In this document: positions 3-32,540 of the stretch, one piece after another
Layout of the letters: each line of letters starts with the position of its first letter
Numbering within the stretch: position 1 is the first letter of the stretch
Assembly: GCA_903845295.1 (NCBI GenBank)
Contig: CAIMWV010000010.1
Location: 1 to 56,434 of the forward strand
Source of the DNA: Candidatus Staskawiczbacteria bacterium
GTDB lineage: Bacteria; Patescibacteriota; Minisyncoccia; Minisyncoccales; Staskawiczbacteraceae
Direction of reading: 5' to 3'
DNA length: 56,434 nt
Made by a program: the position numbers and the translations under genes
Notes under the pieces: model-generated
What the model was told of the DNA's origin: nothing
The model's input: only the letters and a program-made list of their open reading frames with translations
Databases searched by the model: none

Positions 3-935
3 AACATTTTCACCAATCCCTTTTATGCCGGCATTTTTGAATATGGGAAAGGAAATATCCAATATGAAGGAAAGCACGAAAAAATGATTACCCTTGAAGA
101 ATACGATAGGGTTCAGAAAATTCTTGGGAGAAAAGGCAAACCAAGACCAAAAACACACCGCTTTGCTTTTACCGGATCCATTCGATGCGCTGAATGTGGT
201 TGCCTTTTTACGGCCATCGAAAAAGAAAAGATTATTAAAAAAACGGGTGAATTTAAAAGCTTTACATACTACTACTGCACAAGAAAAAAGAAAGATATTA
301 AATGCACTCAAAATAGATCCTTAACTAAGGACATATTAGAAGGACAAATTCAAAATGAAATTAAAAAATATACAATACTTCCCGAGTTTTTGAGTTGGGC
401 TTTGGAGATATTAAATGAAAGGAACGATAGGGAGATTGAAGACAGGAGCAAAATTTACGAGACACAACAAAAGGCGGTAGTTAAATCACAAAACGAATTA
501 GACGAATTAACTAAAATGAGGTATCGCCTGCTAATTGACGACGAGGCTTTTTTGAAAGAGAAAAAAGAACTTCAATCTAAGATAGGTAAACTTAAAGAAA
601 AGTTGAAAGGAACCGAAGCCAGAGCAGAAAAATGGCTTGAGCTTACAGAGAGAACCTTTAATGTCGCTACCTATGCCGGACAAAGATTCTTATCCGGAGG
701 GTTAGAACTGAAGAAGGAAATACTACTGACGTTGGGAGCATACCCTCTTATTAGAGAGCGAAAACTGGTTCTTGAACCCTATGAGTGGTTTATACCAATC
801 AAAAATGACTATCCTCCGTTAGAGGAGGCATATTTAAGGTTAGAACTGGGTAAAACAGGTCAAAATAGGCACAAAATGGAGGCGTTAACCTCCATTCGTA
901 CACAGTGGCGCGGGCGAGGGGATTTGAACCCCTGA
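3..935 (+). CDS. Large serine recombinase/integrase, 5'-truncated by the window edge (recombinase domain end, Zn ribbon, coiled coil)
   Basis: Frame is open from position 3 (NIFTNPFYAG...GKHEKMIT..EEY..VQ). FTGSIRCAECG...YYYC zinc ribbon and long coiled coil. The C-terminus WRGRGDLNP is the antisense of the tRNA-Asp 3' end. Confidence 0.85.
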   Translation, partial: NIFTNPFYAGIFEYGKGNIQYEGKHEKMITLEEYDRVQKILGRKGKPRPKTHRFAFTGSIRCAECGCLFTAIEKEKIIKKTGEFKSFTYYYCTRKKKDIKCTQNRSLTKDILEGQIQNEIKKYTILPEFLSWALEILNERNDREIEDRSKIYETQQKAVVKSQNELDELTKMRYRLLIDDEAFLKEKKELQSKIGKLKEKLKGTEARAEKWLELTERTFNVATYAGQRFLSGGLELKKEILLTLGAYPLIRERKLVLEPYEWFIPIKNDYPPLEEAYLRLELGKTGQNRHKMEALTSIRTQWRGRGDLNP

Positions 936-984
936 TCTCCTCCGTGACAGGGAGGCGTCTTAAACCAGGCTGGACTACGCCCGC
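906..984 (-). tRNA. tRNA-Asp(GTC) with encoded CCA; probable integration site
   Basis: Reverse complement GCGGGCGTAGTCCAGCCTGGTTTAAGACGCCTCCCTGTCACGGAGGAGATCAGGGGTTCAAATCCCCTCGCCCGCGCCA folds as a cloverleaf. Confidence 0.95.
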
Positions 985-1044: not shown

Positions 1045-1118
1045 TGCCGAGGGAGAGATTCGAACTCTCGACCTCGTCGTTATGAGTGACGCGCTCTTAC
1101 CAACTGAGCTACCCCGGC
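1045..1118 (-). tRNA. tRNA with CAT anticodon (elongator Met or Ile2); CCA not encoded
   Basis: Reverse complement GCCGGGGTAGCTCAGTTGGTAAGAGCGCGTCACTCATAACGACGAGGTCGAGAGTTCGAATCTCTCCCTCGGCA. Confidence 0.92.
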
Positions 1119-7157: not shown

Positions 7158-7188
7158 CCTTCATATATAAATTTTATAGAAGGCTGTA
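7151..7188. repeat. GAAGGGTGC-family palindromic element, copy at the murJ 5' end
   Basis: Minus strand TACAGCCTTCTATAAAATTTATATATGAAGGGTGCAAG; similar to 9464-9500 and 13739-13776. Confidence 0.75.
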
Positions 7189-7262: not shown

Positions 7263-7265
7263 GTT

Positions 7266-7626
7266 GTCCCAGCAAGACTATAAGCCGAATTCTGTATTAT
7301 GTGATTATCTGTCTTGGCCAATGATTACCCATTAGCTCAGGCGAACTACTTTTAACAGAAGCTTGAGATGTATTTAACCCAATCTCCTGCTTTGTTCTTG
7401 CACCCAATAAGGATTTAGCCGTTTCATTTCAACCTTTCGATTGAACTCGCCCTATTCATCTTGCGATGACGGGCGCCTCGCCCTTTCGGGCTCGGCGTTT
7501 CTGTTCGCACCTCTGTCTTACGACCGATGGCTGTTAGCCACTACATTTTTAACTCCCGAAAAGGGGCGTTGGTGTTCGGACTTTCCTCTCCCTATAACAG
7601 GGAGCAATCACTCATCTTGCTGAGAC
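7266..7626 (-). ncRNA. rnpB: RNase P RNA
   Basis: Minus strand has GAGGAAAGTCCG near the 5' end and ACAGAATTCGGCTTA near the 3' end. P1 helix GTCTCAGCAAGA/TCTTGCTGGGAC. Confidence 0.93.
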
Positions 7627-9463: not shown

Positions 9464-9521
9464 CTCGCAACCATCATATAAAAAATATATACAAGGTTGT
9501 GTAGATGATAATTTTTTTCAT
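9464..9521 (-). repeat. GAAGGGTGC-family element plus orphan rnhA head MKKIIIYT (9498-9521)
   Basis: Minus strand ATG AAA AAA ATT ATC ATC TAC ACA ACCTTGTATATATTTTTTATATGATGGTTGCGAG; the real gene starts MKKIIVYTDGG. Confidence 0.8.
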
Positions 9522-11457: not shown

Positions 11458-12609
11458 TCACTTCTTCTTAAAAAATATATTTAAACAGCCTTTGAATTTA
11501 TTTAGGTGTTCATTTTTAATACGGAATCCCGATGCTTGCGCGTGGCCGCCGTAGGTTATTAAAAAATCAGCGCAGGTTTTCATTGCATCCACAGAATTTG
11601 TACCTTTTGGATTCCTGACTGAACCGCAAGATTCCTTATCCATTTTTTTAAAAATAAAAGCCGGCTTTTCATATTTGTTGCAGATTACCGATGCCACGGG
11701 ACCCGCCAAGGTTAATTTCCAGGAAGGATCGCCCTCAAAAATAATCTGCTCATCTTGTTTTTGTGAAATTCTTCTCTCCACTTCCTGTATAATATTTTTG
11801 ACTTGTTGCTGTTTGTATTGGTTTTTATTCAAAAGCGTTTCTGCAATTTCCTTGCATTGTTTATTGTCAGAAGAGGTTAAAAGCAAATATGATTCGTTTT
11901 CAAAGTTTAAGCTTTCTGCCGAGTTCAAAGCAGAAATGATCTTTGGCAAAGATTCCTCAAATACTTTTCCGTCCCCTAAAATATCTAAAAAAGCCCTTAT
12001 TGCGGGGCGGAAAGTATTTTTTAATGACCTTAAACCTTGCTCAATAATTTCCTGATTTTGTTCAATCTGCGGAACCATGTCAGCGATAGTGCCCAAAGCA
12101 GTCAATTCCAAAAAACTATTTTTCAAATTCTGAGAAATTTCCCTGCCTAACATTTCCATGCATAAATTAAAGGTCACTCCGACATTGGCTAATCCCTTGA
12201 ATGGATAACTGTCATCTGTTTGTTTCATATCAACAATTATCGAGGCCTTCGGCACTCCATCTAAGGGTTCGTGGTGGTCAACAATAATGACTTCAAAGCC
12301 CATTTTATTTGCTAAATCAACCTCTTTTAAGTTACCTATGCCGAGATCTAATGTTATAAAAAGCGCAGGGGCCTTATTTTTCAGCATATCTAGGGCTTTC
12401 AAATTTATTCCGTAACCGTCATTTTCTCTGTCGGGGAAAAAAGCGCAATCAATATGTCCTCCCAAATTTTTAATCGCCTCCTCCAGAATAACAACGGATG
12501 ATATCCCGTCTAAATCAGAATCTCCATACAAAATAATGCGCTCTTTATTTTGAACAGCTTTTTTTATCCTTTCCGCCGCCTTCTCAATATTTTTAATCTT
12601 CTGGGTCAT
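11458..12609 (-). CDS. recJ: RecJ-like DHH family phosphoesterase (short form)
   Basis: YGDSDLDG, TLD.G, DHH, LGTIADMV, GSVR, GGHAQASG. Confidence 0.85.
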   Translation of the reverse strand: MTQKIKNIEKAAERIKKAVQNKERIILYGDSDLDGISSVVILEEAIKNLGGHIDCAFFPDRENDGYGINLKALDMLKNKAPALFITLDLGIGNLKEVDLANKMGFEVIIVDHHEPLDGVPKASIIVDMKQTDDSYPFKGLANVGVTFNLCMEMLGREISQNLKNSFLELTALGTIADMVPQIEQNQEIIEQGLRSLKNTFRPAIRAFLDILGDGKVFEESLPKIISALNSAESLNFENESYLLLTSSDNKQCKEIAETLLNKNQYKQQQVKNIIQEVERRISQKQDEQIIFEGDPSWKLTLAGPVASVICNKYEKPAFIFKKMDKESCGSVRNPKGTNSVDAMKTCADFLITYGGHAQASGFRIKNEHLNKFKGCLNIFFKKK

Positions 12610-12615
12610 ATTTTT

Positions 12616-13656
12616 TCACTTTAAAGATTCTAGGCCTGGCAATTTATCTCCGGCGAGATAGCTGAGCATTGCCCCGCCGCCCGTTGAAACGTGGCTGAAG
12701 TTATCAATCATACCTTTTTTATTCAAAAATTCAACAGTCTCGCCCCCTCCGACAACCGAATAAGCCCCGCTGTTTATTATTGCATTTGCGATTGCCAAGG
12801 TACCGGCAGCATATTTTTCATCTTCGAATTTTCCGAACGGGCCATTCCATAAAACTGTTTTTGCCTGCATTATTTTTTCCTGGAAATTTTTTACCGATTC
12901 ATCATTTATATCCAAGGCGTCCAATTGGCCGGTGGGAGCTATTATCTTTTCGGGATATTTGAATTTAATTTTTTGTTCTGCAACTTCTTTTGCTATCAGC
13001 CCGCTCACTATCACATAATCTGATACTTCAGAAATATTATTGATGAATTTTGATTTTGTTTCAACCTTTTTCCCGCCGACAATTGTTACCATGGGTTTTG
13101 CCGGATTTTTCATGACTTTATCTAAAACTTCAATTTCTTTTTCAAGCAACAGACCTTGGCAATGAGGCAAGATTTTTGGCACGCCGGTAATTGAAGCCTG
13201 ATCCCTGTGGCAAACTGAAAATGCATCATTTACATAAATATCCCCTAAAAATGAAAGTCTTTTTGCAAAATCCGGGTTGTTTTCCGTTTCTTCTTTATGA
13301 AATCTTAAATTCTCCAGCAATAAAATTTTTCCGGGCGCCAATTTGTTGCTCTGCTCTTCCACCTCCAATCCCACGCAATCATCCTCCTTCTCAATCGAAA
13401 AATTAAGATATTCTGCCAGTTTTTCAGCAACCTTATCCAGTGTAAGCTCCGGAACAACTTTTCCGTCCGGCTCGCCTAAGTGGCTCATCAAAATGATCTT
13501 TGCCTTATTATCAATTAAATATTGGATTGTCGGCAGGGTTTTTTTAATCCTGAAATCATCTAAAACATTTCCTTTTTCATCAAGGGGAACATTAAAATCA
13601 CATCTTACCAAAACGCGTTTGCCGGTAACATCAAAATCTTTCAAAGTTTTTAACAT
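12616..13656 (-). CDS. pgk: Phosphoglycerate kinase (compact)
   Basis: RVLVRCDFNVP, SHLG, LLENLRF, NDAF, WNGP.G.FE, HVSTGGGA. Confidence 0.95.
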   Translation of the reverse strand: MLKTLKDFDVTGKRVLVRCDFNVPLDEKGNVLDDFRIKKTLPTIQYLIDNKAKIILMSHLGEPDGKVVPELTLDKVAEKLAEYLNFSIEKEDDCVGLEVEEQSNKLAPGKILLLENLRFHKEETENNPDFAKRLSFLGDIYVNDAFSVCHRDQASITGVPKILPHCQGLLLEKEIEVLDKVMKNPAKPMVTIVGGKKVETKSKFINNISEVSDYVIVSGLIAKEVAEQKIKFKYPEKIIAPTGQLDALDINDESVKNFQEKIMQAKTVLWNGPFGKFEDEKYAAGTLAIANAIINSGAYSVVGGGETVEFLNKKGMIDNFSHVSTGGGAMLSYLAGDKLPGLESLK

Positions 13657-13713
13657 ACACAAAGTTCGGATAAAAAAATTAAATAATATATAAACTTATA
13701 TTTCGGAAGAAAG

Positions 13714-13801
13714 CTCGCACCCTTCATTTAAAAAATATCTTGTACCCTTCATATAAAAATTATATAGCAGGCTATATAAAAGGCTGTAAGCTTTTAATCA
13801 T
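13714..13801 (-). repeat. GAAGGGTGC-family elements plus orphan pgk-like head MIKSL (13787-13801)
   Basis: Minus strand ATGATTAAAAGCTTACAGCC...TATAGCCTGCTATATAATTTTTATATGAAGGGTACAAG...ATGAAGGGTGCGAG; the real start is MLKTL. Confidence 0.7.
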
Positions 13802-13830
13802 ATAGTAATATTATAGAATATTTTTAGTAA

Positions 13831-13920
13831 TTAAACCACTTCTTGTTGATAACACTGCTCGCCCTTCGGCTTCCCTTCGGCTCCAATCAGGGCAAGCGCT
13901 CAGGGCTTCATCTACTTTTA
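13831..13920 (-). repeat. Nested REP plus orphan array tail EQCYQQEVV* (13831-13860)
   Basis: GAG CAG TGT TAT CAA CAA GAA GTG GTT TAA preceded by GCCCTGAGCGCTTGCCCTGATTGGAGCCGAAGGGAAGCCGAAGGGC. Confidence 0.85.
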
Positions 13921-13921
13921 T

Positions 13922-15661
13922 TTATGCGACCTCGCTTTGATAACAACTTTCGCAGTAAACAATTTCCTGGCGGTCCGGAGCATATGAGGTTTCAATTTCT
14001 TTGCCGCATTTTGCACATTTCCGTGAAAATATTTTAATCGGATTCAGCTGTTTGAAACGCACCCTGTCGCGGCAAAGAGGACATTGGCGCGGGATTGGAA
14101 GATCCATCCGGCGGTAGAAATCAAGCTCCATTTTTACCAGCCTATAGTTTTTTCCGCAATCGTCGCATTTTAATATGCCGCCAAGAATCTCGTCTGTAAC
14201 GTCTTTAATATCATCTGCAAAAGAAACCGTTGCCGGTTCATACTCTTTTGCATCGGAATCCCGCCAAACATAGCCGTTGCTGACAGCTTCTTCCTTGGAA
14301 ATCGGGAAAAATTCATAAGCGCTTGTTTCATTATATGCCCACGGAGAAAATTCAGCCGGGAAATATTCTCCGTAACGATATTCTTTCTTCCGCGAATCAA
14401 TATAGGGCACTTCCATCATCTGTTTTTTAATCTTTCCCACCAAATCTTGATAGTCTTTCTTTGAGTATTGTTTATTTAAAATGCAATATTCTGAATTCCG
14501 AATTCCGACGCAGCCGAAAAGGTTTCCCGAGCCATGGCAAGCAAAACTATATTCCAAATCATGCGCATGGTAATTCCAAAAACTGAACTTGATATTATTA
14601 ACAGTAAGGCCGACCCACACCGATTCGTATATCAATTCAGAATTTTCTCCAAATATTGTATAGTCATAAGCGTCTTTCGATGGGCCCAATTTAAGAAGTT
14701 GGCCATATCGGATATTTTCTCCGTTACCTACCTGATAGGAATCGTGCACATTTTTTGAATTAAAAATATAGTCTCCGGTTACGTTTACATTTTTGCGCCC
14801 ATGGAATTGCCTGCGAGGATATTCAAGAAATAATTTTTCTGCTCTTGCCCTGAAATCATTTACGTTTTTCAATGACCCGAAATTCAATTCTTCAAGTTTT
14901 TTTGCGTATTCTTCCTTTGTGTAGGGTTGATTCAATATGTGATATTGCTTGTTACGCAAGTTAATACAGCCTATGCAATTGGAACAGCCTATGAGATCTC
15001 TTGAGAACCAAATGTCCTGTGAATCTTCGCAGTCTTGCGACCAAAACGCACGATAACACTTATTTGCCATCACAGCCTGGTAGCAAAGCTCGCTGTCATT
15101 TGTGAACGCCACGTCAAAACATTCTTTATTTTTTGCCATCGTGTTGGTATAGGCGCAATTTTCACTAAAATCACTTCTGAAGCAAAGGTAGCAATTTTTT
15201 AAATCCGCCGCGCCATTACACCAAGGGCTATTAATCATGGTCGTATGAGAAGTATAGAGGGTTGGATGAGGAACCTCGCGGAAAAGTTGAAGCCACTGTT
15301 CGAAAAATGATTTTTTAAAGTCGTATTCTTTGCCAAATGACTTTGGGTCCCATTCATCCGACCACCATTTTTCTTGCGAATAAATCTTATGCGGATTTCC
15401 CGGAGGATAAAACGTTATCCCCTCTTCCCCAGAATCAAATTTCTGGCGGTATAAAATTCTCCCGCTTGTCCACACGAAGCGCCGCATCATCCTGCACTCC
15501 GGACACCATGTGGGCGAAGGCACTTTCATCTTCTCGCAAAACGCAGAATCATCGGACTCAATCACGAACTCATTATTGCAGTTTTGGCATACTCGCACTG
15601 AGGACTTCGAGTGAGCCTCAGTCGAACTCCCTGCCGAAGTGTTTTTTGTATCGCTTTCCAT
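13922..15661 (-). CDS. Cys-rich zinc-ribbon/repeat family protein, array copy 13 (numbered in transcription order)
   Basis: CQNC..F.IE.DD..F.EK.KVP.PT.CPECR; LFGCVG...YCILNKQY; ends CAKC-x17-CESC-YQSEVA; nested REP in-frame near the N-terminus. Confidence 0.9.
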   Translation of the reverse strand: MESDTKNTSAGSSTEAHSKSSVRVCQNCNNEFVIESDDSAFCEKMKVPSPTWCPECRMMRRFVWTSGRILYRQKFDSGEEGITFYPPGNPHKIYSQEKWWSDEWDPKSFGKEYDFKKSFFEQWLQLFREVPHPTLYTSHTTMINSPWCNGAADLKNCYLCFRSDFSENCAYTNTMAKNKECFDVAFTNDSELCYQAVMANKCYRAFWSQDCEDSQDIWFSRDLIGCSNCIGCINLRNKQYHILNQPYTKEEYAKKLEELNFGSLKNVNDFRARAEKLFLEYPRRQFHGRKNVNVTGDYIFNSKNVHDSYQVGNGENIRYGQLLKLGPSKDAYDYTIFGENSELIYESVWVGLTVNNIKFSFWNYHAHDLEYSFACHGSGNLFGCVGIRNSEYCILNKQYSKKDYQDLVGKIKKQMMEVPYIDSRKKEYRYGEYFPAEFSPWAYNETSAYEFFPISKEEAVSNGYVWRDSDAKEYEPATVSFADDIKDVTDEILGGILKCDDCGKNYRLVKMELDFYRRMDLPIPRQCPLCRDRVRFKQLNPIKIFSRKCAKCGKEIETSYAPDRQEIVYCESCYQSEVA

Positions 15662-15664
15662 AAT

Positions 15665-16285
15665 TTACTTTTTATCCAAAAAATTAATTATCCGTTGTAT
15701 TTTTTTAACTTCCAGCGCATTTTTTTCTTCTCTTCCTTCTCTCCATGCTAGCCCAATTTTTTCTACCCATCCCTTCTTTTCTTCAATCAATAGGTTTGGT
15801 AACAAAACTTTCGCCTTAACTCCTAAGAATTCTTTTTCAATAGAAATATCATTATAATCACCCGCAAAACGGATTTCTTTGCCATGCATCGGAATTACTA
15901 CCTCCTTCGTCTTATCATCAAAAAAACTAATATGGATATCACAATGGGCAGCCCGTGTTGTTTCTGCGTCAATTGGATCAATTCTTAATAAATCATCCTC
16001 TCCATGCGCCTTGGATTTACAAACTAAGTGGCCTTCTTTTTCCAAAAAAATTTTTGCATCTCCAACGTTATCTCTATCGATTATGAAATCAACGTCTTTA
16101 TGATTCCTGGAAATATAACCCAGATAAGCGTCAACGGCAAAACCGGACAAAACAACATATTTCCAATTTTTTTCAGATGCCCGAATCACAATTCTCTTAA
16201 ACAAATCAATTGCCTTTTTAGTTCTTTCATCCATCTCCCCTTCAGCAAGCGGCGGGATTTCTTTTTTTAATAAATTATCGTTCAT
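15665..16285 (-). CDS. Nucleotidyltransferase, aminoglycoside-2''-adenylyltransferase/Lnu-like family
   Basis: SGFAVDAYLG..SR.HKDVDF motif and later DIH. Confidence 0.75.
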   Translation of the reverse strand: MNDNLLKKEIPPLAEGEMDERTKKAIDLFKRIVIRASEKNWKYVVLSGFAVDAYLGYISRNHKDVDFIIDRDNVGDAKIFLEKEGHLVCKSKAHGEDDLLRIDPIDAETTRAAHCDIHISFFDDKTKEVVIPMHGKEIRFAGDYNDISIEKEFLGVKAKVLLPNLLIEEKKGWVEKIGLAWREGREEKNALEVKKIQRIINFLDKK

Positions 16286-16296
16286 AAATTAATGGA

Positions 16297-16386
16297 TTAT
16301 GCCACTTCTGTATTGTAGTATTGCTTGCCCTTCGACAACCCTTCGGCACGGCTCAGGGCAAGCGCTCAGGGCTTCAGTTGCTTTTA
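16297..16386 (-). repeat. Nested REP plus orphan array tail KQYYNTEVA* (16297-16326)
   Basis: Near copy of 13831-13920: TAAATAAAAGCAACTGAAGCCCTGAGCGCTTGCCCTGAGCCGTGCCGAAGGGTTGTCGAAGGGC AAG CAA TAC TAC AAT ACA GAA GTG GCA TAA. Confidence 0.85.
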
Positions 16387-16387
16387 T

Positions 16388-18133
16388 TTATGCCACCTCA
16401 CTATTGTAGCAACTTTTGCAATAAACGATTTCTGGCCTGTCCGGAGCATAAGAAGTTTCAAATTCATTTGGACACTTTTCTTCCCCATGAGAATGATTTT
16501 TCTGCTCGCACATACATTGGCGGTGCCAAAGCTTGATAGGCGTACGCTGGGCAATCCTGGCAAAATGGCGGCAGTTCGGGCACAGTTGCGGAACCGGGAT
16601 GCCCATGCGTTTGTAAAAATTCAGATCGCTCGACGTTACCTTAAAGGCTTCCGTGCATTGGTGGTTGCATTTTCCAGCGTGGGCGCACCCGATTGTTTCC
16701 TTTAAAATTTGTTCATCAACCTGGTCAATCGAGTCCGGAATGTTTTCTGCTTTTAAGGTGATTTTATAATTCTTAGCCGCGAAATCAACCCACCTGTATC
16801 CGTTTTTTAATGCCTCTTCTTTTGACATGGGGAAAAGCTCTTGAGCGATGGTTTCGTTATAGGCGAATCCGTGCATATCCAACGGGAAGGTTGAACCATA
16901 ACGGAATTCCCTTCCCAAAGAGTCTTTGTATGGAAGCGCATCCATTTGCTCTTTGATTCTCGGCACTAATTCTTCATATTCTTCTTTGCTGTATTGTTTA
17001 TTCAAAATGCAATACTGTTTTTTCCGCAAACCGACGCAGCCAAATAAATCAGATGAACTGTGGCAATTTACGCAGTATTGGGCGCGGATTAACTGGTCCC
17101 AACATTCATTTGAAAAAAACACCTGGCTGCACTGGCGGCCGATTGAGGAGCATTCATAAATAAGCTCTGAAAAAGCGGCCCAATATGTAAAATCCATCAC
17201 ATCTTTCCCATCGGTAATTCCAAAAAGATATTTGCCGTCTTCCACTCTTTCGCAATTAAATCCTACCTTCACATTTTTGCATTGCTCTAACCAATTACCC
17301 GAAACATCAGTGCTGTGATTTTCTACAAGACACGGCACGATGTGTTTTGATGAAAATTCTGCCATTTTTTTGCGCATTTCTTCTACTTCCTTGCGACTTT
17401 TTGGCCAAAGTGTTTTAATTTTATCTTTATATTCCTCTTTTGTATATTGCTCGTTGAAAATGCAATAATTCTTATTGCGCAAATTAACGCAACCAAAACA
17501 ATCAGTACAGTTTTTACAATTTAACAAAAAGGCGGAATTTGAGCAGGTACTACATTCTCTTGAATACATCAACCTGTTACAACCATAACAATCAATGCAC
17601 TCAAAACACAGTTCAGACGAATGAATATTATAGTTGTCCATACTATCTTTTGAATCCCAAATTGAAGTGCCGTAAGAACAATTTTCGTTCGTAGAGGCGG
17701 CAAAAATAAGATAACAGTTTTTGTTGTCGCTGGCCCTGTTGGTATATTCGCTGTTTACGTTTGTTCCTTGTTGAATAATTCCCATCCTTGGAACCTTAAG
17801 GAATAAATCTTTAAGCTGCTCGAAAAATGGTTTTTTAAAGTTATAGTCTTTCCCATAAGATTCAGGATCCCATTTGTCAGACCACCAGCAAGAATAGCAA
17901 TAAACAGTGTAGGGGCTTTCCGGCGAATAAAGCAAAATTTTTTCTTTACCGCACAGATTGCACTTTCTTTTAAAAAGAGACCTCTCGCCCCTCCACGCCA
18001 AACGTTTGACCAGCCTGCACTCCGGACACCACGTCGGTGGCGGCACTTTAATCTTCTCATAAAAATTAAAATCGTCGGGCTCAATCATGAACTCCTTTTT
18101 ACAGTTTTGACATGTTCTTTTTTGGCTTTCCAT
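16388..18133 (-). CDS. Cys-rich family protein, array copy 12
   Basis: Same conserved blocks; internal CNLC-x17-CYSC; ends YCKSCYNSEVA. Confidence 0.9.
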   Translation of the reverse strand: MESQKRTCQNCKKEFMIEPDDFNFYEKIKVPPPTWCPECRLVKRLAWRGERSLFKRKCNLCGKEKILLYSPESPYTVYCYSCWWSDKWDPESYGKDYNFKKPFFEQLKDLFLKVPRMGIIQQGTNVNSEYTNRASDNKNCYLIFAASTNENCSYGTSIWDSKDSMDNYNIHSSELCFECIDCYGCNRLMYSRECSTCSNSAFLLNCKNCTDCFGCVNLRNKNYCIFNEQYTKEEYKDKIKTLWPKSRKEVEEMRKKMAEFSSKHIVPCLVENHSTDVSGNWLEQCKNVKVGFNCERVEDGKYLFGITDGKDVMDFTYWAAFSELIYECSSIGRQCSQVFFSNECWDQLIRAQYCVNCHSSSDLFGCVGLRKKQYCILNKQYSKEEYEELVPRIKEQMDALPYKDSLGREFRYGSTFPLDMHGFAYNETIAQELFPMSKEEALKNGYRWVDFAAKNYKITLKAENIPDSIDQVDEQILKETIGCAHAGKCNHQCTEAFKVTSSDLNFYKRMGIPVPQLCPNCRHFARIAQRTPIKLWHRQCMCEQKNHSHGEEKCPNEFETSYAPDRPEIVYCKSCYNSEVA

Positions 18134-18144
18134 GTTGTTTTTAA

Positions 18145-18164
18145 CGGCTCAACGCGTTGAGCCG
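18145..18164. repeat. Perfect 20-bp palindrome between array genes
   Basis: CGGCTCAACGCGTTGAGCCG is its own reverse complement. Confidence 0.8.
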
Positions 18165-18171
18165 ATGGATT

Positions 18172-19857
18172 TTACGCTATTTCTGCATTGTAGCACTGTT
18201 CACAGTAAATTTTGAATTTCTTTTGACTTTCTGGTGAGTATGAGGTTTCTATGTGTTTACCACAATTGGCACATGCTCCCGCCCAAAGATTCCTTGGGTT
18301 TCGCGTCGCCATTCGTCCTGCATGCCTACAATTAAAACATTGCGATGGAAGTGGGAGTTTGTTTCTCTTATAAAAATTTACTTCTCGATTGATGAGTTTA
18401 AAATTTTTTTGGCAACTTGTACAAGCAAGTGTTTCATTCATAAGCTGATCGCTATATTCTTCCGGGTTTTTCGGTAAATTTTCATGTTCGATAGTTCCTT
18501 GTCCTTTTGTGCTAGGAATATCATCTTTCCATGTAAAGCCTTGGGCCAGAGCTTCTTCTTTGTTTAGTGGCATATACTCATTAACTATTGCTTCGTTATA
18601 ACCAAAAGGGCTTAATTCTTTTGGAAAAAATAATCCCCAATCGCTAGTCTTTTTCAAATTTTCAATGATTTTTTCTTTTAATTCTTCGTATTCTGCTTTA
18701 CTATATTGCTTGTTCAAAATGCAATAAGATTTTTTGCGAAGTCCATAGCACCCGAAAAGATTGTTGCAGTTATGACAATTATCCGAGTAGCAAACATCGT
18801 GTGAATCAACTATCTCGTGGGAACCAATAACCCTATTACTGTTTAGCATGGTCAAGACTTGATAACATTCTGACAAATCACCGGTAAAAGATACGTCGTA
18901 TGAATCTATTGCCTTTCTTACTGTAAAACAAAATTTAGAATCCTCTCCGCTTTTTATATCAAAAGAATAATGAACGTTATGTGCATTGTATATATGATTC
19001 CCAGAAACATTGTTGTTGTGCGAACCGAAGAAAGCGCGCTGGGGAATTTTTGTACGTAAAACATCTCGCTCTTTTAAAATATAATCTATACTTGATTTTT
19101 CTTTTAGCGGATACTTTGATAGAAAATTTTTGTACTCTTCTTTTGTAACTGGCTTATTAAAAATGTTGTAAGACTTATTTATTTGTCCTACACAACCAAT
19201 ACAATTTAAACAATTTCTACAATCAAAAAGTCCAATACTGTCTACGCAACTCTCGCACTCTTGCGAATAAAAAAGTTTCGATGATTCTAAGCAATCGACG
19301 CATTCGTAACAAGATTCTGATTTAAATAGGTATAGATTATCTACCGAATCTCGGCAATTCCAAACAATATGACCATAATCACAGTCTTCATCGTTTAGAC
19401 CACCGAAGATAAGATAGCAATTTTTGCTTTGATTGATTTGGTTTGCATACTCACAATTCTCGGTCTCGGAATTCATCACGTTAACGCGCGGAACTGTATT
19501 GGATAATCTGGCGAGTTGAGTAAAAAATGGCTTCTGGCTATCAAAATCAATCCCGTAAGTCATGGGGTCCCAGTCATCACTCCACCATTCAGATACACTA
19601 TAAACAGGAAAGAGTGCGTCGGGACCATACGCAGAGACAATCATGTCGCCAGATTTACTAGATGGCCTTTTATACAATGTTTTAAAATTTCTAAAAAGCA
19701 TACGCAACTGCTGACGGCATTGTGGACAAATTTCCGGCGCTGGGACTTTCATTTTTTCGTAGAAAGCAAAATCATCGGACTCAATTACGAAATCCTTTTT
19801 GCAGTTTTGGCAGACTCGCACTGAGCCTGCCGAAGTGTTTTTGGTTTCCGATTTCAT
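18172..19857 (-). CDS. Cys-rich family protein, array copy 11
   Basis: Family blocks; in-frame REP encoding TSAGSV at 19819-19837; ends YCEQCYNAEIA. Confidence 0.9.
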   Translation of the reverse strand: MKSETKNTSAGSVRVCQNCKKDFVIESDDFAFYEKMKVPAPEICPQCRQQLRMLFRNFKTLYKRPSSKSGDMIVSAYGPDALFPVYSVSEWWSDDWDPMTYGIDFDSQKPFFTQLARLSNTVPRVNVMNSETENCEYANQINQSKNCYLIFGGLNDEDCDYGHIVWNCRDSVDNLYLFKSESCYECVDCLESSKLFYSQECESCVDSIGLFDCRNCLNCIGCVGQINKSYNIFNKPVTKEEYKNFLSKYPLKEKSSIDYILKERDVLRTKIPQRAFFGSHNNNVSGNHIYNAHNVHYSFDIKSGEDSKFCFTVRKAIDSYDVSFTGDLSECYQVLTMLNSNRVIGSHEIVDSHDVCYSDNCHNCNNLFGCYGLRKKSYCILNKQYSKAEYEELKEKIIENLKKTSDWGLFFPKELSPFGYNEAIVNEYMPLNKEEALAQGFTWKDDIPSTKGQGTIEHENLPKNPEEYSDQLMNETLACTSCQKNFKLINREVNFYKRNKLPLPSQCFNCRHAGRMATRNPRNLWAGACANCGKHIETSYSPESQKKFKIYCEQCYNAEIA

Positions 19858-19860
19858 ATT

Positions 19861-21615
19861 TTATACTACCTCGCTATTATAGCAACTTTCGCAGTAAATT
19901 ATTTCAGGACGTTCCGGCGCATACGGCGTTTCAAATTCATTCGCACAATTCGCACTGCCGTGAGAATGATTTTTCTTGTCGCACATGCATTTTCTGTGCC
20001 ATAGCTTAAGGGGGTTTCTTTGGGCGAGGCGTTCGTAGTGCCTGCAGTTGGGGCACATCCTTGGTAAGGGTAAGTTCGCCTTTCTGTAGAATTGCAGCTC
20101 TTCTTTGATTATTTTAAAGGCGGTGGTGCATTGGTGGTTGCACTCACCTTTGTGGCCACATCCTATTACCTTGCCGATAATATCATCGCCGACATCTTTG
20201 ATATGGTCCGGCAAGTCTTGCGATAGTATGTCTATTTTGTAGGTTTTCTCTTCCGGATCTTTCCAGCGATAACCTTGCGGCATGGCCTGTTCTTTGGTTA
20301 AGGGAAAGTACTCTTGGGCAATGGTTTCGTTGTAGGCAAAGGGGCTCAATTCTGAAGGGAAAAATTCGCCATATTTATAAACTCTTCCCTGCTTATCGAC
20401 ATACGGCATATCTGCCATCTGTTTTATAATTTTGGAAACCAGCTCCTCATATTTTTCTTTAGTGTATTGCTTGTTCAAAATGCAGTATTGCTTGCTTCGC
20501 AGTCCCGTGCAGCCAAAAAGATTCTGCGATCCCGTACAGTTTAGAGAATAAGAAACATTTGTGCTACCCTTGATAACCTGGCTGAACAGATAATAGGCGT
20601 TTTCGGTGGATTCAAAGCCAAGCGAAAGCGATTCGTACAGCATTTCACCGCGGCTTAAGCCATAAACATCATAAGAATCCTTCAGCCCGATGCCTATGTA
20701 GTGAGAGAAGGCGGAATTTTCGTAGTTATCTCCGGAAAAATCAAAGCACTCCTTGCAATTCTTTGAATTTTTAAGGTTATCCCCCGTAGATTGGGCTGTC
20801 TTAATCATCTGGGCATATTTGCGCAGCGCTCCTTTTCGGAGGTCGTTATACTTTTCAATGTGCTCTTGTAAAACCGCGTAGCTTCCTAAGTCAATCTGTT
20901 TCAGCTTTGAAAGATATTCCTCTTTGGAATAAGGCTGGTTAAACAGATAGTATTGCTTGCCCCGGAGGTTCACGCTGAAAGAGCAGTTCTGGCAATTCCT
21001 GCAGTCGAAAAGGAAATTTGAGTCTGTGCACGCATCGCAATACTGGGAATACTTCAAGTTGTACGAATTCTCGCATTGGACACACTGGTAGCAGCGCTCG
21101 TTACGCGTGCCGGTGTAACAATCAATGCTGTCTTTACACATGTAAATGCGGTTGGAATACAAGATGCCCTCGCTCTCCCTGCCAGCAATTTGCAAGTAGC
21201 AGTCTTTGGCCCCTGACATATAATTGCAGTAATCAGAATTGCTCGGCGTGGTATTAAAAAGCGCCATGGAAGGCGTGCGCTGCAGCAACTCCAAAAATTG
21301 GGTCATGAAGGGGCGGGAGAAATTATAAGCAACGCCTGCAGCCATGGGATCCCAGGAATCCGACCACCAGCAGTCTTGACAATAAACGACGAACGGCGAG
21401 TCGGCCGGATAAATCGAAACCATCTGCTTGCCGCACTGTGCACAATTCCGGCGGTACAGCGCCCGCTCATTTCTCCAAGTCATCCTGCGCTGGTTGCGGC
21501 ATTCTGGACAAAAAGTCGGCGGAGGCACTTTAATCTTCTCATAGAATGAAAAATCATCGGGCTCGATGATGAAGTCTTTTTTACAATTTTGGCAAATTTT
21601 GGTTTCTTGTTCCAT
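19861..21615 (-). CDS. Cys-rich family protein, array copy 10
   Basis: Family blocks; ends YCESCYNSEVV. Confidence 0.9.
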   Translation of the reverse strand: MEQETKICQNCKKDFIIEPDDFSFYEKIKVPPPTFCPECRNQRRMTWRNERALYRRNCAQCGKQMVSIYPADSPFVVYCQDCWWSDSWDPMAAGVAYNFSRPFMTQFLELLQRTPSMALFNTTPSNSDYCNYMSGAKDCYLQIAGRESEGILYSNRIYMCKDSIDCYTGTRNERCYQCVQCENSYNLKYSQYCDACTDSNFLFDCRNCQNCSFSVNLRGKQYYLFNQPYSKEEYLSKLKQIDLGSYAVLQEHIEKYNDLRKGALRKYAQMIKTAQSTGDNLKNSKNCKECFDFSGDNYENSAFSHYIGIGLKDSYDVYGLSRGEMLYESLSLGFESTENAYYLFSQVIKGSTNVSYSLNCTGSQNLFGCTGLRSKQYCILNKQYTKEKYEELVSKIIKQMADMPYVDKQGRVYKYGEFFPSELSPFAYNETIAQEYFPLTKEQAMPQGYRWKDPEEKTYKIDILSQDLPDHIKDVGDDIIGKVIGCGHKGECNHQCTTAFKIIKEELQFYRKANLPLPRMCPNCRHYERLAQRNPLKLWHRKCMCDKKNHSHGSANCANEFETPYAPERPEIIYCESCYNSEVV

Positions 21616-21665
21616 AATTTTTTTTAGTAATTATATTTATGCTGTTTCTGAATTATATCGCTATG

Positions 21666-23381
21666 CTATGCGACCTCGCTGTTATAACACTGCTCGCAGT
21701 AAATTATTTCTTTACGATCTGGGGCATAGCTGGTTTCGAATTTATTGGGGCATCGTTCTGTATGATGCGGGTGATTTTTATCGCACATGCACTGGCGGTA
21801 CCAAAGCTTAACCGGGTTTCTCCAGGCAAACCTGCTGTAATGTCGGCAATTCTGACATATTCGGGGCAACGGAATATTAAGCTTTCTGTAAAACTGCAGT
21901 TCTTGGTTGGTGATTTTAAATACTCCTACACATTCGTGTGCGCATTCTCCTTCGTGAGCGCAGCTAATGACCTCTTTGGTGATGTTTTCATCAACATTGG
22001 CAATGTCATCGGACACATCAGCACTGGACATGGTTGCTTTAAATTGTTTCTCTTTGGAATCGCGCCAAACAAACCCCTTATTTTCAACTTCCTCTTTTGT
22101 GAGAGGAAAATGTTCATAGGCAAAGGATTCGTTGTAAGCCAAAGGACTCATCTCTACTGGGAAGAACTCTCCGTACTCCCCAGTTGATTTCATGTGCTCA
22201 ATAATTTTTGGAACTATCGCCTCGTATTCTTCTTTGGTATATTGTTTATTAAAAATGCAATATTGCTTGTTGCGCAAACTGATGCAACCGAATAGGTAAG
22301 AAGAATTCTGACAGATATAACAATATTGCAAATTGGCATTGGAAGGATAACAGAATGCGGAAAACGCCACGTTATACGCCCCATCGCCCACAACAAGCGA
22401 ATTATAAATTAATTCTGACCCGCTCCCAAAATTACTGTGATCATATGAATCTTTCGCAGGACCCAATGTAAAGTTTTGGCAGTATTTAACATTTTCGCCA
22501 CCAACAATTCTCCAGCAATTCTTAGCGTCTTTGGAATCAAAGATATAGTCTCCGGAAACATTGGCGTTATGACGGCCGTGAATAAATTTATTTGGAAACT
22601 GCGCCCAGTGCCCAATACTCTTCTCTCTTAAAGCTTCGACATTAGTCCTTGAAGTTACCCCAATCTCTTCTAATTTTTCGAGATACTCTTTTTTGGAATA
22701 AGGCTGATTAAATATGTGATAAGACTTATTTTTTAAATTAGCGCAGCCAAAACAATTATTGCAACCAACACAATTCTTGCAGAACATCGCCTCGCTGCAT
22801 CCTTCGCAATCTATAGAATACAGCGTTTTATAGCACTTGGTGATATTAACGCAGTCATAACAAAGCTCAGACTCGTTATAAATATGGCAGTCAAAAATAT
22901 CTTTGGATTTAGCTCCCCAAATAGAATATGCAGAATTCTCCACATATGAGATGCCGAAGCTAAGATAACAATCTTTAGGTTCAGTAGCATTAGCACAGTA
23001 ATCACTGTTCAGCGGCTTAGAAAGGTTCCTGGACATAAGAGGAACTTGCCTCATTAGTTCTTTAAACTGTTCAAAAAATGGACGTGAAAAATCATAATTT
23101 CGTCCGTATTGCAGCGGGTCCCAGGAATCTGAATACCACTCTGACACTTCCATTATTTTAACCGGAGAATCCTCATGAAACATAGAAAAAATTTCCTTGC
23201 CATGGATATCTTTTTTCCTCATGAGCTTCCACTCGTTGCGCCACGAAAACCGTCTTTGCATCCTGCACTCAGGGCACCATGTGGGCGGCGGTACTTTTAT
23301 TTTTTCATAAAACGCAAAATCATCGGGTTCGATGATGAACTCTTGTTTACAATTCTGGCACTGGCGCGTTTCTTGATCCAT
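21666..23381 (-). CDS. Cys-rich family protein, array copy 9 (start MDQETRQC)
   Basis: Start chosen by alignment with paralogs; followed by orphan tail YNSETA* at 21637-21657. Confidence 0.9.
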   Translation of the reverse strand: MDQETRQCQNCKQEFIIEPDDFAFYEKIKVPPPTWCPECRMQRRFSWRNEWKLMRKKDIHGKEIFSMFHEDSPVKIMEVSEWYSDSWDPLQYGRNYDFSRPFFEQFKELMRQVPLMSRNLSKPLNSDYCANATEPKDCYLSFGISYVENSAYSIWGAKSKDIFDCHIYNESELCYDCVNITKCYKTLYSIDCEGCSEAMFCKNCVGCNNCFGCANLKNKSYHIFNQPYSKKEYLEKLEEIGVTSRTNVEALREKSIGHWAQFPNKFIHGRHNANVSGDYIFDSKDAKNCWRIVGGENVKYCQNFTLGPAKDSYDHSNFGSGSELIYNSLVVGDGAYNVAFSAFCYPSNANLQYCYICQNSSYLFGCISLRNKQYCIFNKQYTKEEYEAIVPKIIEHMKSTGEYGEFFPVEMSPLAYNESFAYEHFPLTKEEVENKGFVWRDSKEKQFKATMSSADVSDDIANVDENITKEVISCAHEGECAHECVGVFKITNQELQFYRKLNIPLPRICQNCRHYSRFAWRNPVKLWYRQCMCDKNHPHHTERCPNKFETSYAPDRKEIIYCEQCYNSEVA

Positions 23382-23386
23382 AATAT

Positions 23387-25168
23387 TTATGCTATTTCTG
23401 ATTGATAACATTCTTCGCAATAAACTATTTCCGGCTGGTCGGGGGCGTATGAGGTTTCAAATTTATTGGGGCAATGTCCATTTTTATGGAAATGTTCTAT
23501 CGTATTGCGGTATGCGTCATTTTCTGACTTTGAACCCCCGCATTGGCATTGCCTTTTATATAAATCTAATTTGGTACGCTGGTTAATGCGTTCAGAGTGG
23601 CGGCAGTTTGAACAAATTCTCGGCAGGGGCAAATTCATGCTGCGGTAGAATGCCAGCTCATCGGGCAATATACGGAATGCTAGAGTGCATTGGTCGTTAC
23701 ACTTTCCCTCATGAGCACAACCTATAATTTCTGCAGTAATAGAATCCGACACATCCTTGATGTTGTCGGGTAGCTCGCTCGCCTGTTTAGTAATTTTATA
23801 ATTGCGTTGGGCGGTGTCGCGCCAGGCAAAACCAAACTCTTCGGCCTGTTTCTTGGTAATGGGAAAATTTTCCTGTGCCAATGTCTCGTTATAGGCAAAC
23901 GGCGAAAATTCTACCGGAAAATATTCGCCGTATTTATACACCCTCCCCTTTGCATCCGTGTAGGGCTTGTCATCCATGTGTTTCTTGATCTTCGAAACAA
24001 GTTTCTCATATTCTTCTTTGGTATATTGCTTGTTCAAAATACAGTACTCTTTTTTGCGCAACCCGATGCAGCCAAATAAATTAGACGAAGACTGGCACAT
24101 GTAAGAATATTCAATATCGTGCACATTCTCTTGCACGTTGTAGCAAAACTTAATATTGTTAGTTCCTAGTCCGCAGGCAGCACACTCATAAATCTGCTGG
24201 TTGCCCGCTCCCCACGCAGTATAATCATAACAATCTTTGCTTCCGGGCGATTCCTGCACATATTGGCAGTAATGCAGGTTTTCGCTTTCGCGCACCAAGA
24301 ATGATTTATTCACGTTACGGGAGTGTGAAATATAATTGCCGGAGACATTCGTATTCGAAAGCCCATTGATATACTTATTCGGGAACTTCAACCAAAATTC
24401 TACAGCTTTCTTACGCATCTCTTGCAGCGCCGCATTTGAACCGATATTAAACTCTGCAATTTTTTTAAAGTAATCCTCTTTATTATATTTCTCATTGAAA
24501 ATGTAAAAAGATTTTTTACGCAATCCGACGCAGCTAAAACAATTATTTATGCCTACGCAGTCCTTGCAGAAAGCAATATCGTAAGATCCCTCGCACTGCG
24601 AAGAAAAAATGGCGTTACGGCAAGACGTCAACCAAAAGCCCTCATAACAACGTTCTGATTTTAAAACGTGTGAACCGTCCACGCAATTCTTCACGTCTCC
24701 CAAGCCGTTGCCGTACATGCAATCCTCTGCCCTCTGGCCATTGAAAGTCAGGTAGCAATTTTTAGGATCGGTAAAATTGTTTACGTAGTCGCTGTTTACG
24801 CCATTTACTACATTCAAATTTTTCAAGGGTACTGTATGCAACAATTCTTTAAACTGCTCGAAGAATGGCCTCTCATCGAAGTTTTTGCCAAACATCATCG
24901 GGTCCCATGAGTCGGTAAGCCAGACTTCTTTTTCATAAACTTTTACCGGCGCATCGGGCGCAAATGCTGAAAAAATATCTTTGCCCGAACAGTCACTTCT
25001 CCGTTTAAATAAAAACCGCTCGTTTCTAAAGGCCATCCTACGTTGGGCACGGCAGAGCCAACAGAATGTCGGCGGCGGTACTTTTATTTTTTCGTAAAAC
25101 GCAAAATCATCGGGCTCGATGACGAACTCCTTTTTACAGTTTTGGCAAGTTTTGGTTTCTTGTTGCAT
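23387..25168 (-). CDS. Cys-rich family protein, array copy 8 (start MQQETKTC)
   Basis: Family blocks; start chosen by alignment. Confidence 0.9.
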   Translation of the reverse strand: MQQETKTCQNCKKEFVIEPDDFAFYEKIKVPPPTFCWLCRAQRRMAFRNERFLFKRRSDCSGKDIFSAFAPDAPVKVYEKEVWLTDSWDPMMFGKNFDERPFFEQFKELLHTVPLKNLNVVNGVNSDYVNNFTDPKNCYLTFNGQRAEDCMYGNGLGDVKNCVDGSHVLKSERCYEGFWLTSCRNAIFSSQCEGSYDIAFCKDCVGINNCFSCVGLRKKSFYIFNEKYNKEDYFKKIAEFNIGSNAALQEMRKKAVEFWLKFPNKYINGLSNTNVSGNYISHSRNVNKSFLVRESENLHYCQYVQESPGSKDCYDYTAWGAGNQQIYECAACGLGTNNIKFCYNVQENVHDIEYSYMCQSSSNLFGCIGLRKKEYCILNKQYTKEEYEKLVSKIKKHMDDKPYTDAKGRVYKYGEYFPVEFSPFAYNETLAQENFPITKKQAEEFGFAWRDTAQRNYKITKQASELPDNIKDVSDSITAEIIGCAHEGKCNDQCTLAFRILPDELAFYRSMNLPLPRICSNCRHSERINQRTKLDLYKRQCQCGGSKSENDAYRNTIEHFHKNGHCPNKFETSYAPDQPEIVYCEECYQSEIA

Positions 25169-30487: not shown

Positions 30488-31948
30488 TTAAATTAATGGC
30501 TCTTCTGGTTTATCTTCTGACTTTTTAGCTTCTTCTGGTCCTTTTCCCTTGCCCTGAATTATAGACTTTTCGTGAGAACTCCTCATGATTTTTGACTCTT
30601 CCGATTCCATAAGCTTCTTTGCGGCCTCAGCTGAAATAGTATACTTTGCGCGGGATAGCTCAATAATTTCCTTTCTAAAAGACTTGTGAGTCGCCGGCAT
30701 AACTTTAAGGGTTTCAGCAGAAAAAGGGTCATAAGCTTCCCCATCAATAGTTTCTTTGATGTAAAAATTCTGGACTCCCAGGTTTACCATATCTTTAACG
30801 CCAAATATCGGCGCCATTTCCGGCTCCAATTTGACCGCATCTTCACCGCCCACACGGAACACAATAATGGTTCCCGTATTTCCTAAAACCGCCTGCTGGA
30901 CTTTAGGAATAAGCTGTCCCATATATTGGTGTGCCACGGTAAGGCAAATGGCGTATTTGCGGGCTTCTGATAATATATTTTCAAAGGTTTCAGTCATAAG
31001 ATTATGGAACTCGTCAACATAGAGATAAAAATCTTTTCTTTCGTCTTCCGGCAGAGCGGCCCGCGCCATACCCGCTTGCTTGATTTTCGTAATAAACATT
31101 GAACCAAAAAAACTGGCGTTCTCTTCCCCTAGCTTGCCTTTGCACAAATTAATTAAAATAATTTTTCCTTCATTCATCAGTTTTTCCAAATCAACCTTGT
31201 TTTCTTCCTGGCCGAAAATACCGCGCAAAGCCGGATCTGACAAAAACTGCGCCAGCTTATTCACTAAAGGAATAATGGCTTCGGTATCGTATTTTTCCGA
31301 CCAGTCGGCAAACTCAATGGCCCAGAACCGTTTGACCATGTCGTCCTGAATATATTCAACCACCAGCTGGCGGTAGTTTCTGTCGGTAAGCATGGAAATC
31401 ATACCCCGCATGGTGCCGTGCGGATAATCCAAAAGAGCTAAACAAGTGAAGCGGAACACGTGCTCAAGCCTGGGCGTCCAATTGGCGCCGAATTGCCTTT
31501 CCAACACTTCAATCAAGCCTTGGGTTAACTGGTGCTTGAAGCCCGGGTCAATATTAGCTAAAGGATTGAAAGAAATGGGGAATTTGGCGTCGGAAGGGTC
31601 GATAAGCACTACGTCATCTATCCTGTCTTCCGGGATAAAATCCAAAATTGCATCCACAACATCACCGTGTGGGTCAATAAAACAAAGCCCGTGGTTGTAC
31701 CCGATGTCCTGGCGGACAAAAAGCTCCAGAAGCTTGGACTTGCCTACTCCGGATTTACCGACAATATACACATGCCTGCGCCTGTCTACTCTCTTAATGC
31801 CAAAAATAAACTTTTGCTCTTGCAAAGCCGCTTCATAATTGGTTTTGCCGATAAATGAGCAGTCTTCGGGCTCAACTGTACCATAAATAGGCAGCTCCGG
31901 AGGCGGAGGCGCCAATTTAAATCTGCGGATTCTATTTTTATCTACCAT
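30488..31948 (-). CDS. VirD4/TraD/TrwB-like (FtsK-HerA superfamily) ATPase 2; start MVDKNR
   Basis: DRRRH.YIVGKSGVGKS (Walker A), IDPHGD, LYVDEF (Walker B), SEARKY, AHQY, GNTGT...FRVG. The upstream ORF extension runs through a repeat element. Confidence 0.88.
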   Translation of the reverse strand: MVDKNRIRRFKLAPPPPELPIYGTVEPEDCSFIGKTNYEAALQEQKFIFGIKRVDRRRHVYIVGKSGVGKSKLLELFVRQDIGYNHGLCFIDPHGDVVDAILDFIPEDRIDDVVLIDPSDAKFPISFNPLANIDPGFKHQLTQGLIEVLERQFGANWTPRLEHVFRFTCLALLDYPHGTMRGMISMLTDRNYRQLVVEYIQDDMVKRFWAIEFADWSEKYDTEAIIPLVNKLAQFLSDPALRGIFGQEENKVDLEKLMNEGKIILINLCKGKLGEENASFFGSMFITKIKQAGMARAALPEDERKDFYLYVDEFHNLMTETFENILSEARKYAICLTVAHQYMGQLIPKVQQAVLGNTGTIIVFRVGGEDAVKLEPEMAPIFGVKDMVNLGVQNFYIKETIDGEAYDPFSAETLKVMPATHKSFRKEIIELSRAKYTISAEAAKKLMESEESKIMRSSHEKSIIQGKGKGPEEAKKSEDKPEEPLI

Positions 31949-32095
31949 GGTTTTGCGAGCGAGGCGAGCGAAACTACTTCGAAATTCTTGGCCATATGAT
32001 ATATCGAATACATTGGTGCCAAAATTTCGCTGAACACCTTGCTTTTCGTGAGCAAAAAGCGAACGCTTCGTCCCATTTAGCGGGACGCTGAACAC
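31949..32095 (-). repeat. GTGTTCAGCG-hairpin elements, tandem copies B and C
   Basis: Two GTGTTCAGCG...CGAAG units. Copy B keeps the AATGTATTCGATATAT loop of copy A with a different stem. Confidence 0.75.
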
Positions 32096-32198
32096 CTTAC
32101 GCTATTTAGTTATATTTAATTATTTCTATCATAGCTTTTTCGCGCCTTTTTAGCAATACAAAATCGCAGGCGAATATGCCGCTTTATCCGGAAATTTT

Positions 32199-32507: not shown

Positions 32508-32540
32508 GTGATTTATATTAGTTAATAATTAAATTAATTC

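Follow-up and report, generated by a model that had tools for sequence, protein, structure and literature searches.

Headless family tails behind REP hairpins point to displaced native gene ends in a zinc-finger paralog array of Candidatus Staskawiczbacteria

The DNA analyzed here, referred to as the window, is a 56,434-nt contig (CAIMWV010000010.1, contig C10 of assembly GCA_903845295.1) from a Candidatus Staskawiczbacteria genome (G000; 779 kb, 35 contigs, 95% complete). It carries an array of 13 paralogous minus-strand genes between positions 13922 and 39866. In two of these genes the original last nine codons and stop have been displaced by a module of ~91 nt, which supplies a new protein ending together with a nested repetitive extragenic palindrome (REP). 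The native tail is left headless behind the module as an "orphan". We consider it probable that this arose by short-tract exchange. All 13 paralogs (about 554–606 residues) share an N-terminal zinc-finger motif (CQNC...F.IEPDDF) and a C-terminal ...C..CY..E(V/I)x motif directly before the stop. The family was present in 16 of 24 other genus genomes drawn, often as arrays; these genomes are numbered G0xx, and pattern searches covered 26 genus genomes, G000 included.

Native ends and inserted modules

Minus-strand reading confirmed the three headless tails that an earlier note on this DNA had placed in the array gaps, EQCYQQEVV, KQYYNTEVA and YNSETA (orphans 1–3; peptides are written up to their stop codons, and coordinates are given in Table 1). 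The orphans lie in gaps of 259, 102 and 50 nt behind family genes 1, 2 and 3, respectively. None equals the tail just upstream, as the note had also observed (19/30, 22/30 and 12/21 identical nucleotides, the last counted by hand). A profile of 52 family tails was scored against all 41,668 stop-terminated 9-mers of the genome. Orphan 1 reached 34.3 bits (rank 2 genome-wide) and orphan 2, in which a zinc-ligand Cys has become Tyr, 14.7 bits. The best non-family peptide scored 2.9 bits and the shuffled genome gave a maximum of 9.1. Both orphans are far above chance as family tails. The shorter orphan 3, a 6-mer, scored at chance level genome-wide (12.3 bits; unrelated matches at 12.4 and 10.6, shuffle maximum 12.0); the array gaps hold just 54 candidate peptides on the gene strand. 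The ortholog of gene 3 in the sister species G005 (75.6% amino acid identity) has YNNEIA (19.2 bits) at the same place after a near-identical 8-nt linker, and an equivalent is missing behind the orthologs in G003 and G012. Orphan 3 probably goes back to an earlier event of this type, of which no more than 8 nt of linker is left.

Contigs from four public runs of one study, which may be the source samples, cover all three orphan sites with 0 differences. They contained no clean module-free form across 12600–23500, a search of contigs only that cannot show absence. The joints listed for these contigs had short sides (20–38 letters, 88% likeness) that resemble other family genes.

Each module consists of a replacement tail (nine codons and TAA), then a linker of 16 nt, then a hairpin of 45 nt whose fold has two tiers, with one 20-nt REP nested within another. 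It is inserted right after the first Cys codon of the gene's last CxxC. For module 1, the last bases of the hairpin abut orphan 1 at the first Cys codon of its final CxxC. A complete zinc-knuckle ending is restored, so the protein stays whole. The earlier note had described a near-identical spacer of ~60 nt with a REP nested in a REP. Length (61 nt) and nesting held, and "homologous" fits the resemblance better, with 51/61 positions identical. The 61-nt insert holds no open reading frame (ORF), gene or gene remnant. Its 23-nt core occurs only twice in the genome, with 0 exact matches in metagenome and genome collections. The inner REP core of spacer 2 is identical to three other genomic REP copies (on C15, C30 and C35). 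Assignment of the spacers to a known RNA family was tried and rejected, as Rfam at gathering scores returned just RNase P RNA and two tRNAs in the window. Only 2 of the 13 array members carry a module.

Comparison with orthologs, which were assigned from a quick tree of 48 full-length family proteins, points to the native identity of orphans 1 and 2. The G009 ortholog of gene 1 (79% amino acid identity; gene body 78% at the nucleotide level) adjoins pgk. Orphan 1 is identical to its live tail at 28/30 nt, and the next 17 nt downstream are also identical. The current tail of gene 1 matches the same G009 tail at only 20/30, which is background (mean 19.9/30 among 12 window tails). The closest relative of gene 2 lies on metagenome contig L058 (84.3% amino acid, 81% nucleotide identity) and ends CKQCYNTEVA. 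Orphan 2 is identical to this L058 tail at 25/30, and the current tail of gene 2 is identical to it at 21/30. Because the orphans match the tails of the upstream genes' orthologs, each orphan is the native end, comprising the original last nine codons and stop, and the addition is the current tail plus spacer. Counted as differences, live tail and orphan stand at 10 versus 2 from G009 and at 9 versus 5 from L058. A live tail more changed than a neutral orphan argues against duplication in place. The end replacement proposed in the earlier note is borne out by these comparisons. A foreign tail and REP spacer now end genes 1 and 2, with the native tail stranded behind.

Relatives lack the module. 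It was not found behind the G009 and G024 orthologs of gene 1, where the 16-nt linker is not present either. Spacer and orphan were not found in any of 7 orthologs of gene 2 (G003, G019, G024, G023, G005, G012 and G016; two of these end KQCYNLEVA), and the L058 relative is also without a module.

A nucleotidyltransferase gene lies directly after orphan 2, outside the module. It occurs in 0 of the 25 other genus genomes, yet stands at the same array position on L058. There, the family gene with its native tail is followed three bases on by the nucleotidyltransferase (85.0% amino acid identity) and, after the same 3-nt gap, by the next family gene. Divergence of the family gene (84.3%) and the nucleotidyltransferase is alike. 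Since the nucleotidyltransferase was already in place in the L058 lineage, it did not come with orphan 2, and the idea of a single imported block of the two was rejected. Within gene 2 itself, codons about 180–270 are nearer G003 and G019 (about 0.8 nucleotide identity) than L058 (0.61–0.72), which is nearest elsewhere. This stretch looks like a mosaic of lineages within the gene.

Spread between paralogs and tail duplications elsewhere

The pattern of a REP end followed by a family tail was found at five places in 2 of the 26 genus genomes, two in G000 and three in the sister species G003; a reversed control gave 0. The G003 sites are in paralogs that are not orthologous to genes 1 and 2, and the G003 ortholog of gene 2 is without the module. 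All five junctions fall at one base, right after the first Cys codon of the last CxxC. Two adjacent G003 genes have a common 105-nt block with 3 mismatches, with flanks about 50% identical. The block extends from the RPEIVYC codons across the tail, stop, linker and REP and takes in the first 16 nt of the orphan. It is best described as a recent conversion tract in which the orphan would have served as right-hand homology.

Upstream of the tails, the stretch between -135 and -91 from the stop follows orthology (33/45 and 36/45). Between -90 and -31 nearly all paralogs are alike (43–52/60; the exception is 18172–19857 at 20–23/60), and the last 30 nt do not track orthology. This succession places the crossover within the shared block. 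We infer a short-tract exchange, by gene conversion or template switching, with a family member having a REP behind its stop. The left crossover would lie inside the shared 60-nt block coding FETSYAPDRPEIVYC, and the right end would be joined at the REP edge via a few bases of microhomology to the Cys codon. Behind a stop codon the native tail would be free to decay, and orphan 2 has already lost its Cys. The orphan of a first structure could then supply right-hand homology, so that the module would be copied from paralog to paralog. Such copying would be ordinary conversion between paralogs after a one-sided homologous entry. For single-copy genes, the donor would have to be another lineage. 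Compact gene spacing may select joins that duplicate the tail over joins that delete the start of the next gene.

Every ORF end of the genome was also checked for a second copy of its last residues downstream. Eleven non-array genes had a headless second copy of their last 6–16 codons, 19–1364 nt downstream (Table 1). Five further rows were dropped, namely a tandem tRNA artefact, three internal-repeat or paralog cases (C35:44159, C7:3964 and C24:16029) and an opposite-strand shadow of the L23 site. In the reverse-complement control the 6-residue screen gave at most 4/6 identities, and the 8-residue screen four rows from two repeated peptides. The DNA between tail copies comprises a REP at lepA, which has the layout of genes 1 and 2 and for which the earlier note had named the same end-replacement process, a second palindromic promoter-like repeat, other hairpins, or one of two whole radical-SAM genes. 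The radical-SAM inserts measure 1364 and 1003 nt, the first being absent at that locus in G005. Eight of the tail-duplication genes were sought in G005; six were found, with the insert in 0/6. Applied to 738 kb of G005, this screen yielded no more than about 2–4 cases, one in its array's TrwB-like gene.

Across the 11 pairs, 38 differing codons were synonymous and 4 non-synonymous (22% synonymous expected, P about 3e-21). Outside the residues used for picking cases, 7 of 8 differing codons were synonymous. Mostly synonymous differences indicate two working versions of one ending side by side. At lepA both versions are live alleles in the genus (CGT-GCG in G041, AGA-GCA in G003 and G023), the live tail being G041-like and the orphan G003-like. 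We tentatively suggest that the array orphans may be three of at least 14 scars of one process, in which added DNA brings a diverged end of the upstream gene and leaves the native end behind. At the small end the added DNA seems to be a 20-nt REP or a promoter-like palindrome, at the large end a radical-SAM gene of 1.4 kb, in each case placed between tightly packed genes. Since nearly all differences between the tail copies are synonymous, the copies would be the ends of working genes from two lineages.

The promoter-like repeat is a roughly 45-nt AT-rich palindrome flanked by CTTGCAC and GGCTGTAAA, resembling a -35/-10 promoter. At least 19 copies occur genome-wide, with window copies at 7158–7183, 9471–9496 and 13713–13791 (plus strand). 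It stands upstream of three minus-strand window genes, including pgk just past orphan 1, and sits between live tail and orphan at six other genes. Adenine mutagenesis by a diversity-generating retroelement was considered for the tail differences and rejected. A was involved in 18/33 differences (7 non-array pairs, hand count, A-rich sequence), which is not enriched, and in the array pairs C, G and T positions differ as well, unlike the retroelement pattern.

Competing explanations and known systems

Several points weigh against displacement by a tail and REP module. Orthology rests on the quick tree only, the careful tree search being incomplete. The G024 ortholog of gene 1 (ESCYNNEVA) is 22/30 identical to the live tail and 19/30 to orphan 1. 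The identical joint base fits a single origin with homologous spread, but also site-specific insertion. Within the conserved 60 nt, the imported tract's left boundary cannot be located. A degenerate search of the 26 genomes for a donor, that is, a family gene with tail, linker and REP but no orphan, found none. At 0 mismatches it matched only the two window copies, and the 1-mismatch match read (G007) was not a family gene. The replacement tails are only modestly above the family background, with 23/30 to each other and 25/30 for each to the tail of gene 19861–21615, the best window match of tail 1. With such modest likeness, a paralog origin rests mainly on linkage to the shared spacer. At lepA either copy could be the incomer.

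The earlier note took the orphans as stumps of whole array members inserted, deleted or swapped, and so as a log of array growth. This is quite unlikely. Only 61 nt (or 8 nt) without gene or remnant separate live tail and orphan, and nothing was gained or lost between them. For orphans 1 and 2 the match is to the tails that orthologs of the adjoining upstream genes carry, the module is missing in relatives that have the same neighbours, and the nucleotidyltransferase beside orphan 2 was already in the L058 lineage without a module. Part of the turnover claim survives in that array content beside pgk differs between species, but no gene insertion by this process was seen inside the array. Elsewhere, two whole radical-SAM genes lie between a live tail and an orphan, one of them missing at the locus in G005, and a process of this kind can, on this layout, apparently insert genes. 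Transposition of a REP hairpin into the tail, with duplication of about 30 nt of target and subsequent drift of the copies in place, is also improbable. The REP family does look mobile, with 35 genomic copies of the 20-nt sequence matching one pattern and four identical cores at unrelated sites, and both at lepA and in the array it has direct repeats on either side. But flanking repeats above the null were found for only 1 of the 35 copies (lepA; score 9.0 against a 99.9th percentile of 7.5 at 2000 random sites), and a long target duplication as a trait of REP insertions in general was therefore rejected. The Y1 transposase associated with REPs (REP-associated tyrosine transposase, RAYT; PF01797) gave 0 matches in the 95%-complete G000, with the positive control matched in 6 of 14 known genomes. 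These two results together make REP transposition with long target duplication unlikely. Further, the selected live tail is further from the orthologs than the unselected orphan, and neutral decay of one copy would not yield the synonymous excess seen in the 11 other genes.

A source in another lineage rather than in a same-cell paralog, with entry by DNA uptake and one-sided homology in the manner of homology-facilitated illegitimate recombination (HFIR), is a minority possibility that retains some weight. The same layout is found at single-copy genes (lepA, L23, YchF, RNase J, DprA and others), which have no paralog to copy, their tail copies differ almost only synonymously, like two orthologs, and both lepA tail versions live in the genus. 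DprA and a ComEC-type Competence domain (176.6 bits) are present, and HFIR with 3–10 bp joins is documented in transformable bacteria (PMC6382021). Against uptake, a donor lineage with the array module was not found in metagenome and genome collections or the 26 genus genomes, the G003 pair shows copying inside one genome, and transformation in this organism is only predicted. A programmed switch, in which the live tail would recombine with the orphan, excising the module and altering variable zinc-knuckle residues, is very improbable. In its favour, direct repeats flank the hairpin, and the differences between live tails and orphans fall at positions that vary in the family. Against it, a Cys ligand is gone from orphan 2, 11 of the 13 members are without the module, and no contig without it was seen in the four runs (contigs only, so weak). 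Displacement through short-tract exchange remains the account that we favour.

REPs and their REPIN combinations, which are mobilised by RAYTs, are short GC-rich imperfect palindromes with dozens of copies; they often follow directly on stop codons and are sometimes nested. The element here is likewise a short imperfect palindrome with 35 dispersed copies in 779 kb, and its hairpins fold. It differs in that a RAYT-type gene was not found in G000, that some copies seem to lie in reading frames (by eye), and that a replacement tail travels with the hairpin. Nested composites also occur at C35:697–737 and in G003 and G013. Several REP copies seem to be in frame inside ORFs, their contexts being judged by eye. 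In some family members REP-like sequence also immediately precedes the N-terminal CQNC, within the reading frame and with translations such as ...NTSAGSVRV.... Examples are about 19810–19840 (start of 18172–19857) and the start of gene 1, with others in L003, L004 and L006, and the family seems to take REP insertions at both ends.

Gene conversion between tandem paralogs leaves a short near-identical tract in otherwise diverged neighbours, as in the 105-nt G003 block; unlike that process, the tract here carries a non-coding hairpin and a stop into the frame and strands the old ending. HFIR is one-sided homologous integration documented in laboratory transformation (PMC6382021). The array may share with it a homologous anchor on one side (the conserved 60-nt block upstream), a short microhomology on the other (the REP/orphan join shares bases resembling GC to GCAAG) and extra DNA carried in. 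HFIR is known from laboratory crosses, and here it would be read from scars only; the array copies are also explicable by paralog conversion. The closest described layout is the e14 prophage in Escherichia coli icd, which leaves the C-terminal pseudogene icdC (PMC13626634). In both, the live gene reads into an insert that supplies a diverged 3' end, and the native C-terminal fragment is headless behind it. By comparison, the insert here is a 61-nt linker and hairpin without integrase or ORF. There is no identical att core, the flanks being 19/30 and 22/30 alike with no exact core beyond a few bases. The event also recurs on several paralogs and, otherwise shaped, on at least 11 other genes of one small genome. 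For integron attC sites, no GTTRRRY-type core was seen by eye at the spacer ends (IntI was not searched for). A literature search judged on titles and abstract starts did not find tail duplication beside REPs.

Array surroundings and meaning of the scars

Features of the window and of the genome-wide screen are collected in Table 1. Gene 1 matched Pfam zf_Tbcl_2 (PF23477) at residues 545–576 with a score of 27.0, exactly at the cut-off of 27, and no Pfam family was reported for gene 2.

Table 1. Positions of array features, neighbours and tail-duplication sites (window coordinates unless a contig is named)
Feature	Position	Strand	Remarks
Family gene 1, with module 1	13922..15661	-	
Family gene 2, with module 2	16388..18133	-	
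Family gene 3, upstream of orphan 3	21666..23420	-	
Orphan 1	13831..13860	-	Displaced native tail of gene 1
Orphan 2	16297..16326	-	Displaced native tail of gene 2
Orphan 3	21637..21657	-	Headless tail without REP, 8 nt past TAG of gene 3
Spacer 1	13861..13921	-	Linker and hairpin of module 1
Two-tier REP hairpin of module 1	13861..13905	-	Fold -20.3 kcal/mol, z -2.6
16-nt linker of module 1	13906..13921	-	Begins ATAAAAG after stop
Replacement tail 1, ESCYQSEVA	13922..13951	-	Live end of gene 1
Spacer 2	16327..16387	-	16-nt linker and two-tier REP hairpin
Replacement tail 2, KSCYNSEVA	16388..16417	-	Live end of gene 2
Nucleotidyltransferase gene	15665..16285	-	Weak match to Pfam Aminoglyc_resit, an aminoglycoside nucleotidyltransferase family, 24.6 bits (cut-off 21)
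pgk	12616..13662	-	Just past orphan 1
VirD4/TrwB-like coupling-protein gene	30488..32095		Inside array
VirD4/TrwB-like coupling-protein gene	39905..41908		Beside array; carries zf_Tbcl_2 domain, as in family tail
RNase P RNA	7265..7623	-	110 bits (gathering score 100)
tRNA gene	909..984	-	
tRNA gene	1045..1118	-	
Tail duplication, lepA	C10:3632-3692		
Tail duplications, other genes: L23, YchF, RNase J, DprA, SBP_bac_5 protein, class II tRNA synthetase, GtrA-like protein, GT4 glycosyltransferase, two without Pfam match	C7:22634, C6:5963, C12:22956, C12:20728, C30:35849, C1:29367, C35:38015, C11:9475, C25:22450, C27:37546		Genes and sites each given as a set

The G005 counterpart of the coupling-protein gene inside the array has its own headless tail, PEEPLI followed by REEPLI 60 nt further on. 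The 718-nt gap 32096–32813, after family gene 32814–34562, opens with a long inverted repeat (arms about 18 nt, some 230 nt apart). It also has a small reading frame (MIFIYVPCQN...) that recurs behind family genes in G019, G024, G005 and G003. The family member adjoining pgk varies across species of the genus (compared with L002–L007, L062 and L064). A gene-2-type member is found there in G019, G023 and G012 and a gene-1-type member in G009, G024 and the window; G005 and G002 have different paralogs at this place. The array end by pgk thus does turn over, though the orphans do not mark such changes.

At the orphan sites, the array members are stable and only the last nine codons are exchanged. 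The C-terminal zinc knuckle is kept intact each time, and the array is interleaved with VirD4/TrwB-like genes, which together suggest that the tail may be a functionally important signal. A headless tail behind a gene marks a replaced gene end, and comparison with orthologs tells which copy is the original. For an uncultured lineage with small genomes, this offers, from sequence only, a means of counting and dating recombination events and of finding the short repeats that travel with them. If the array orphans and the other tail duplications are indeed scars of one process, the genome would be legible as a record of imports from relatives by one-sided homology, and the tight packing of its genes would account for the survival of tail-duplicating events alone.

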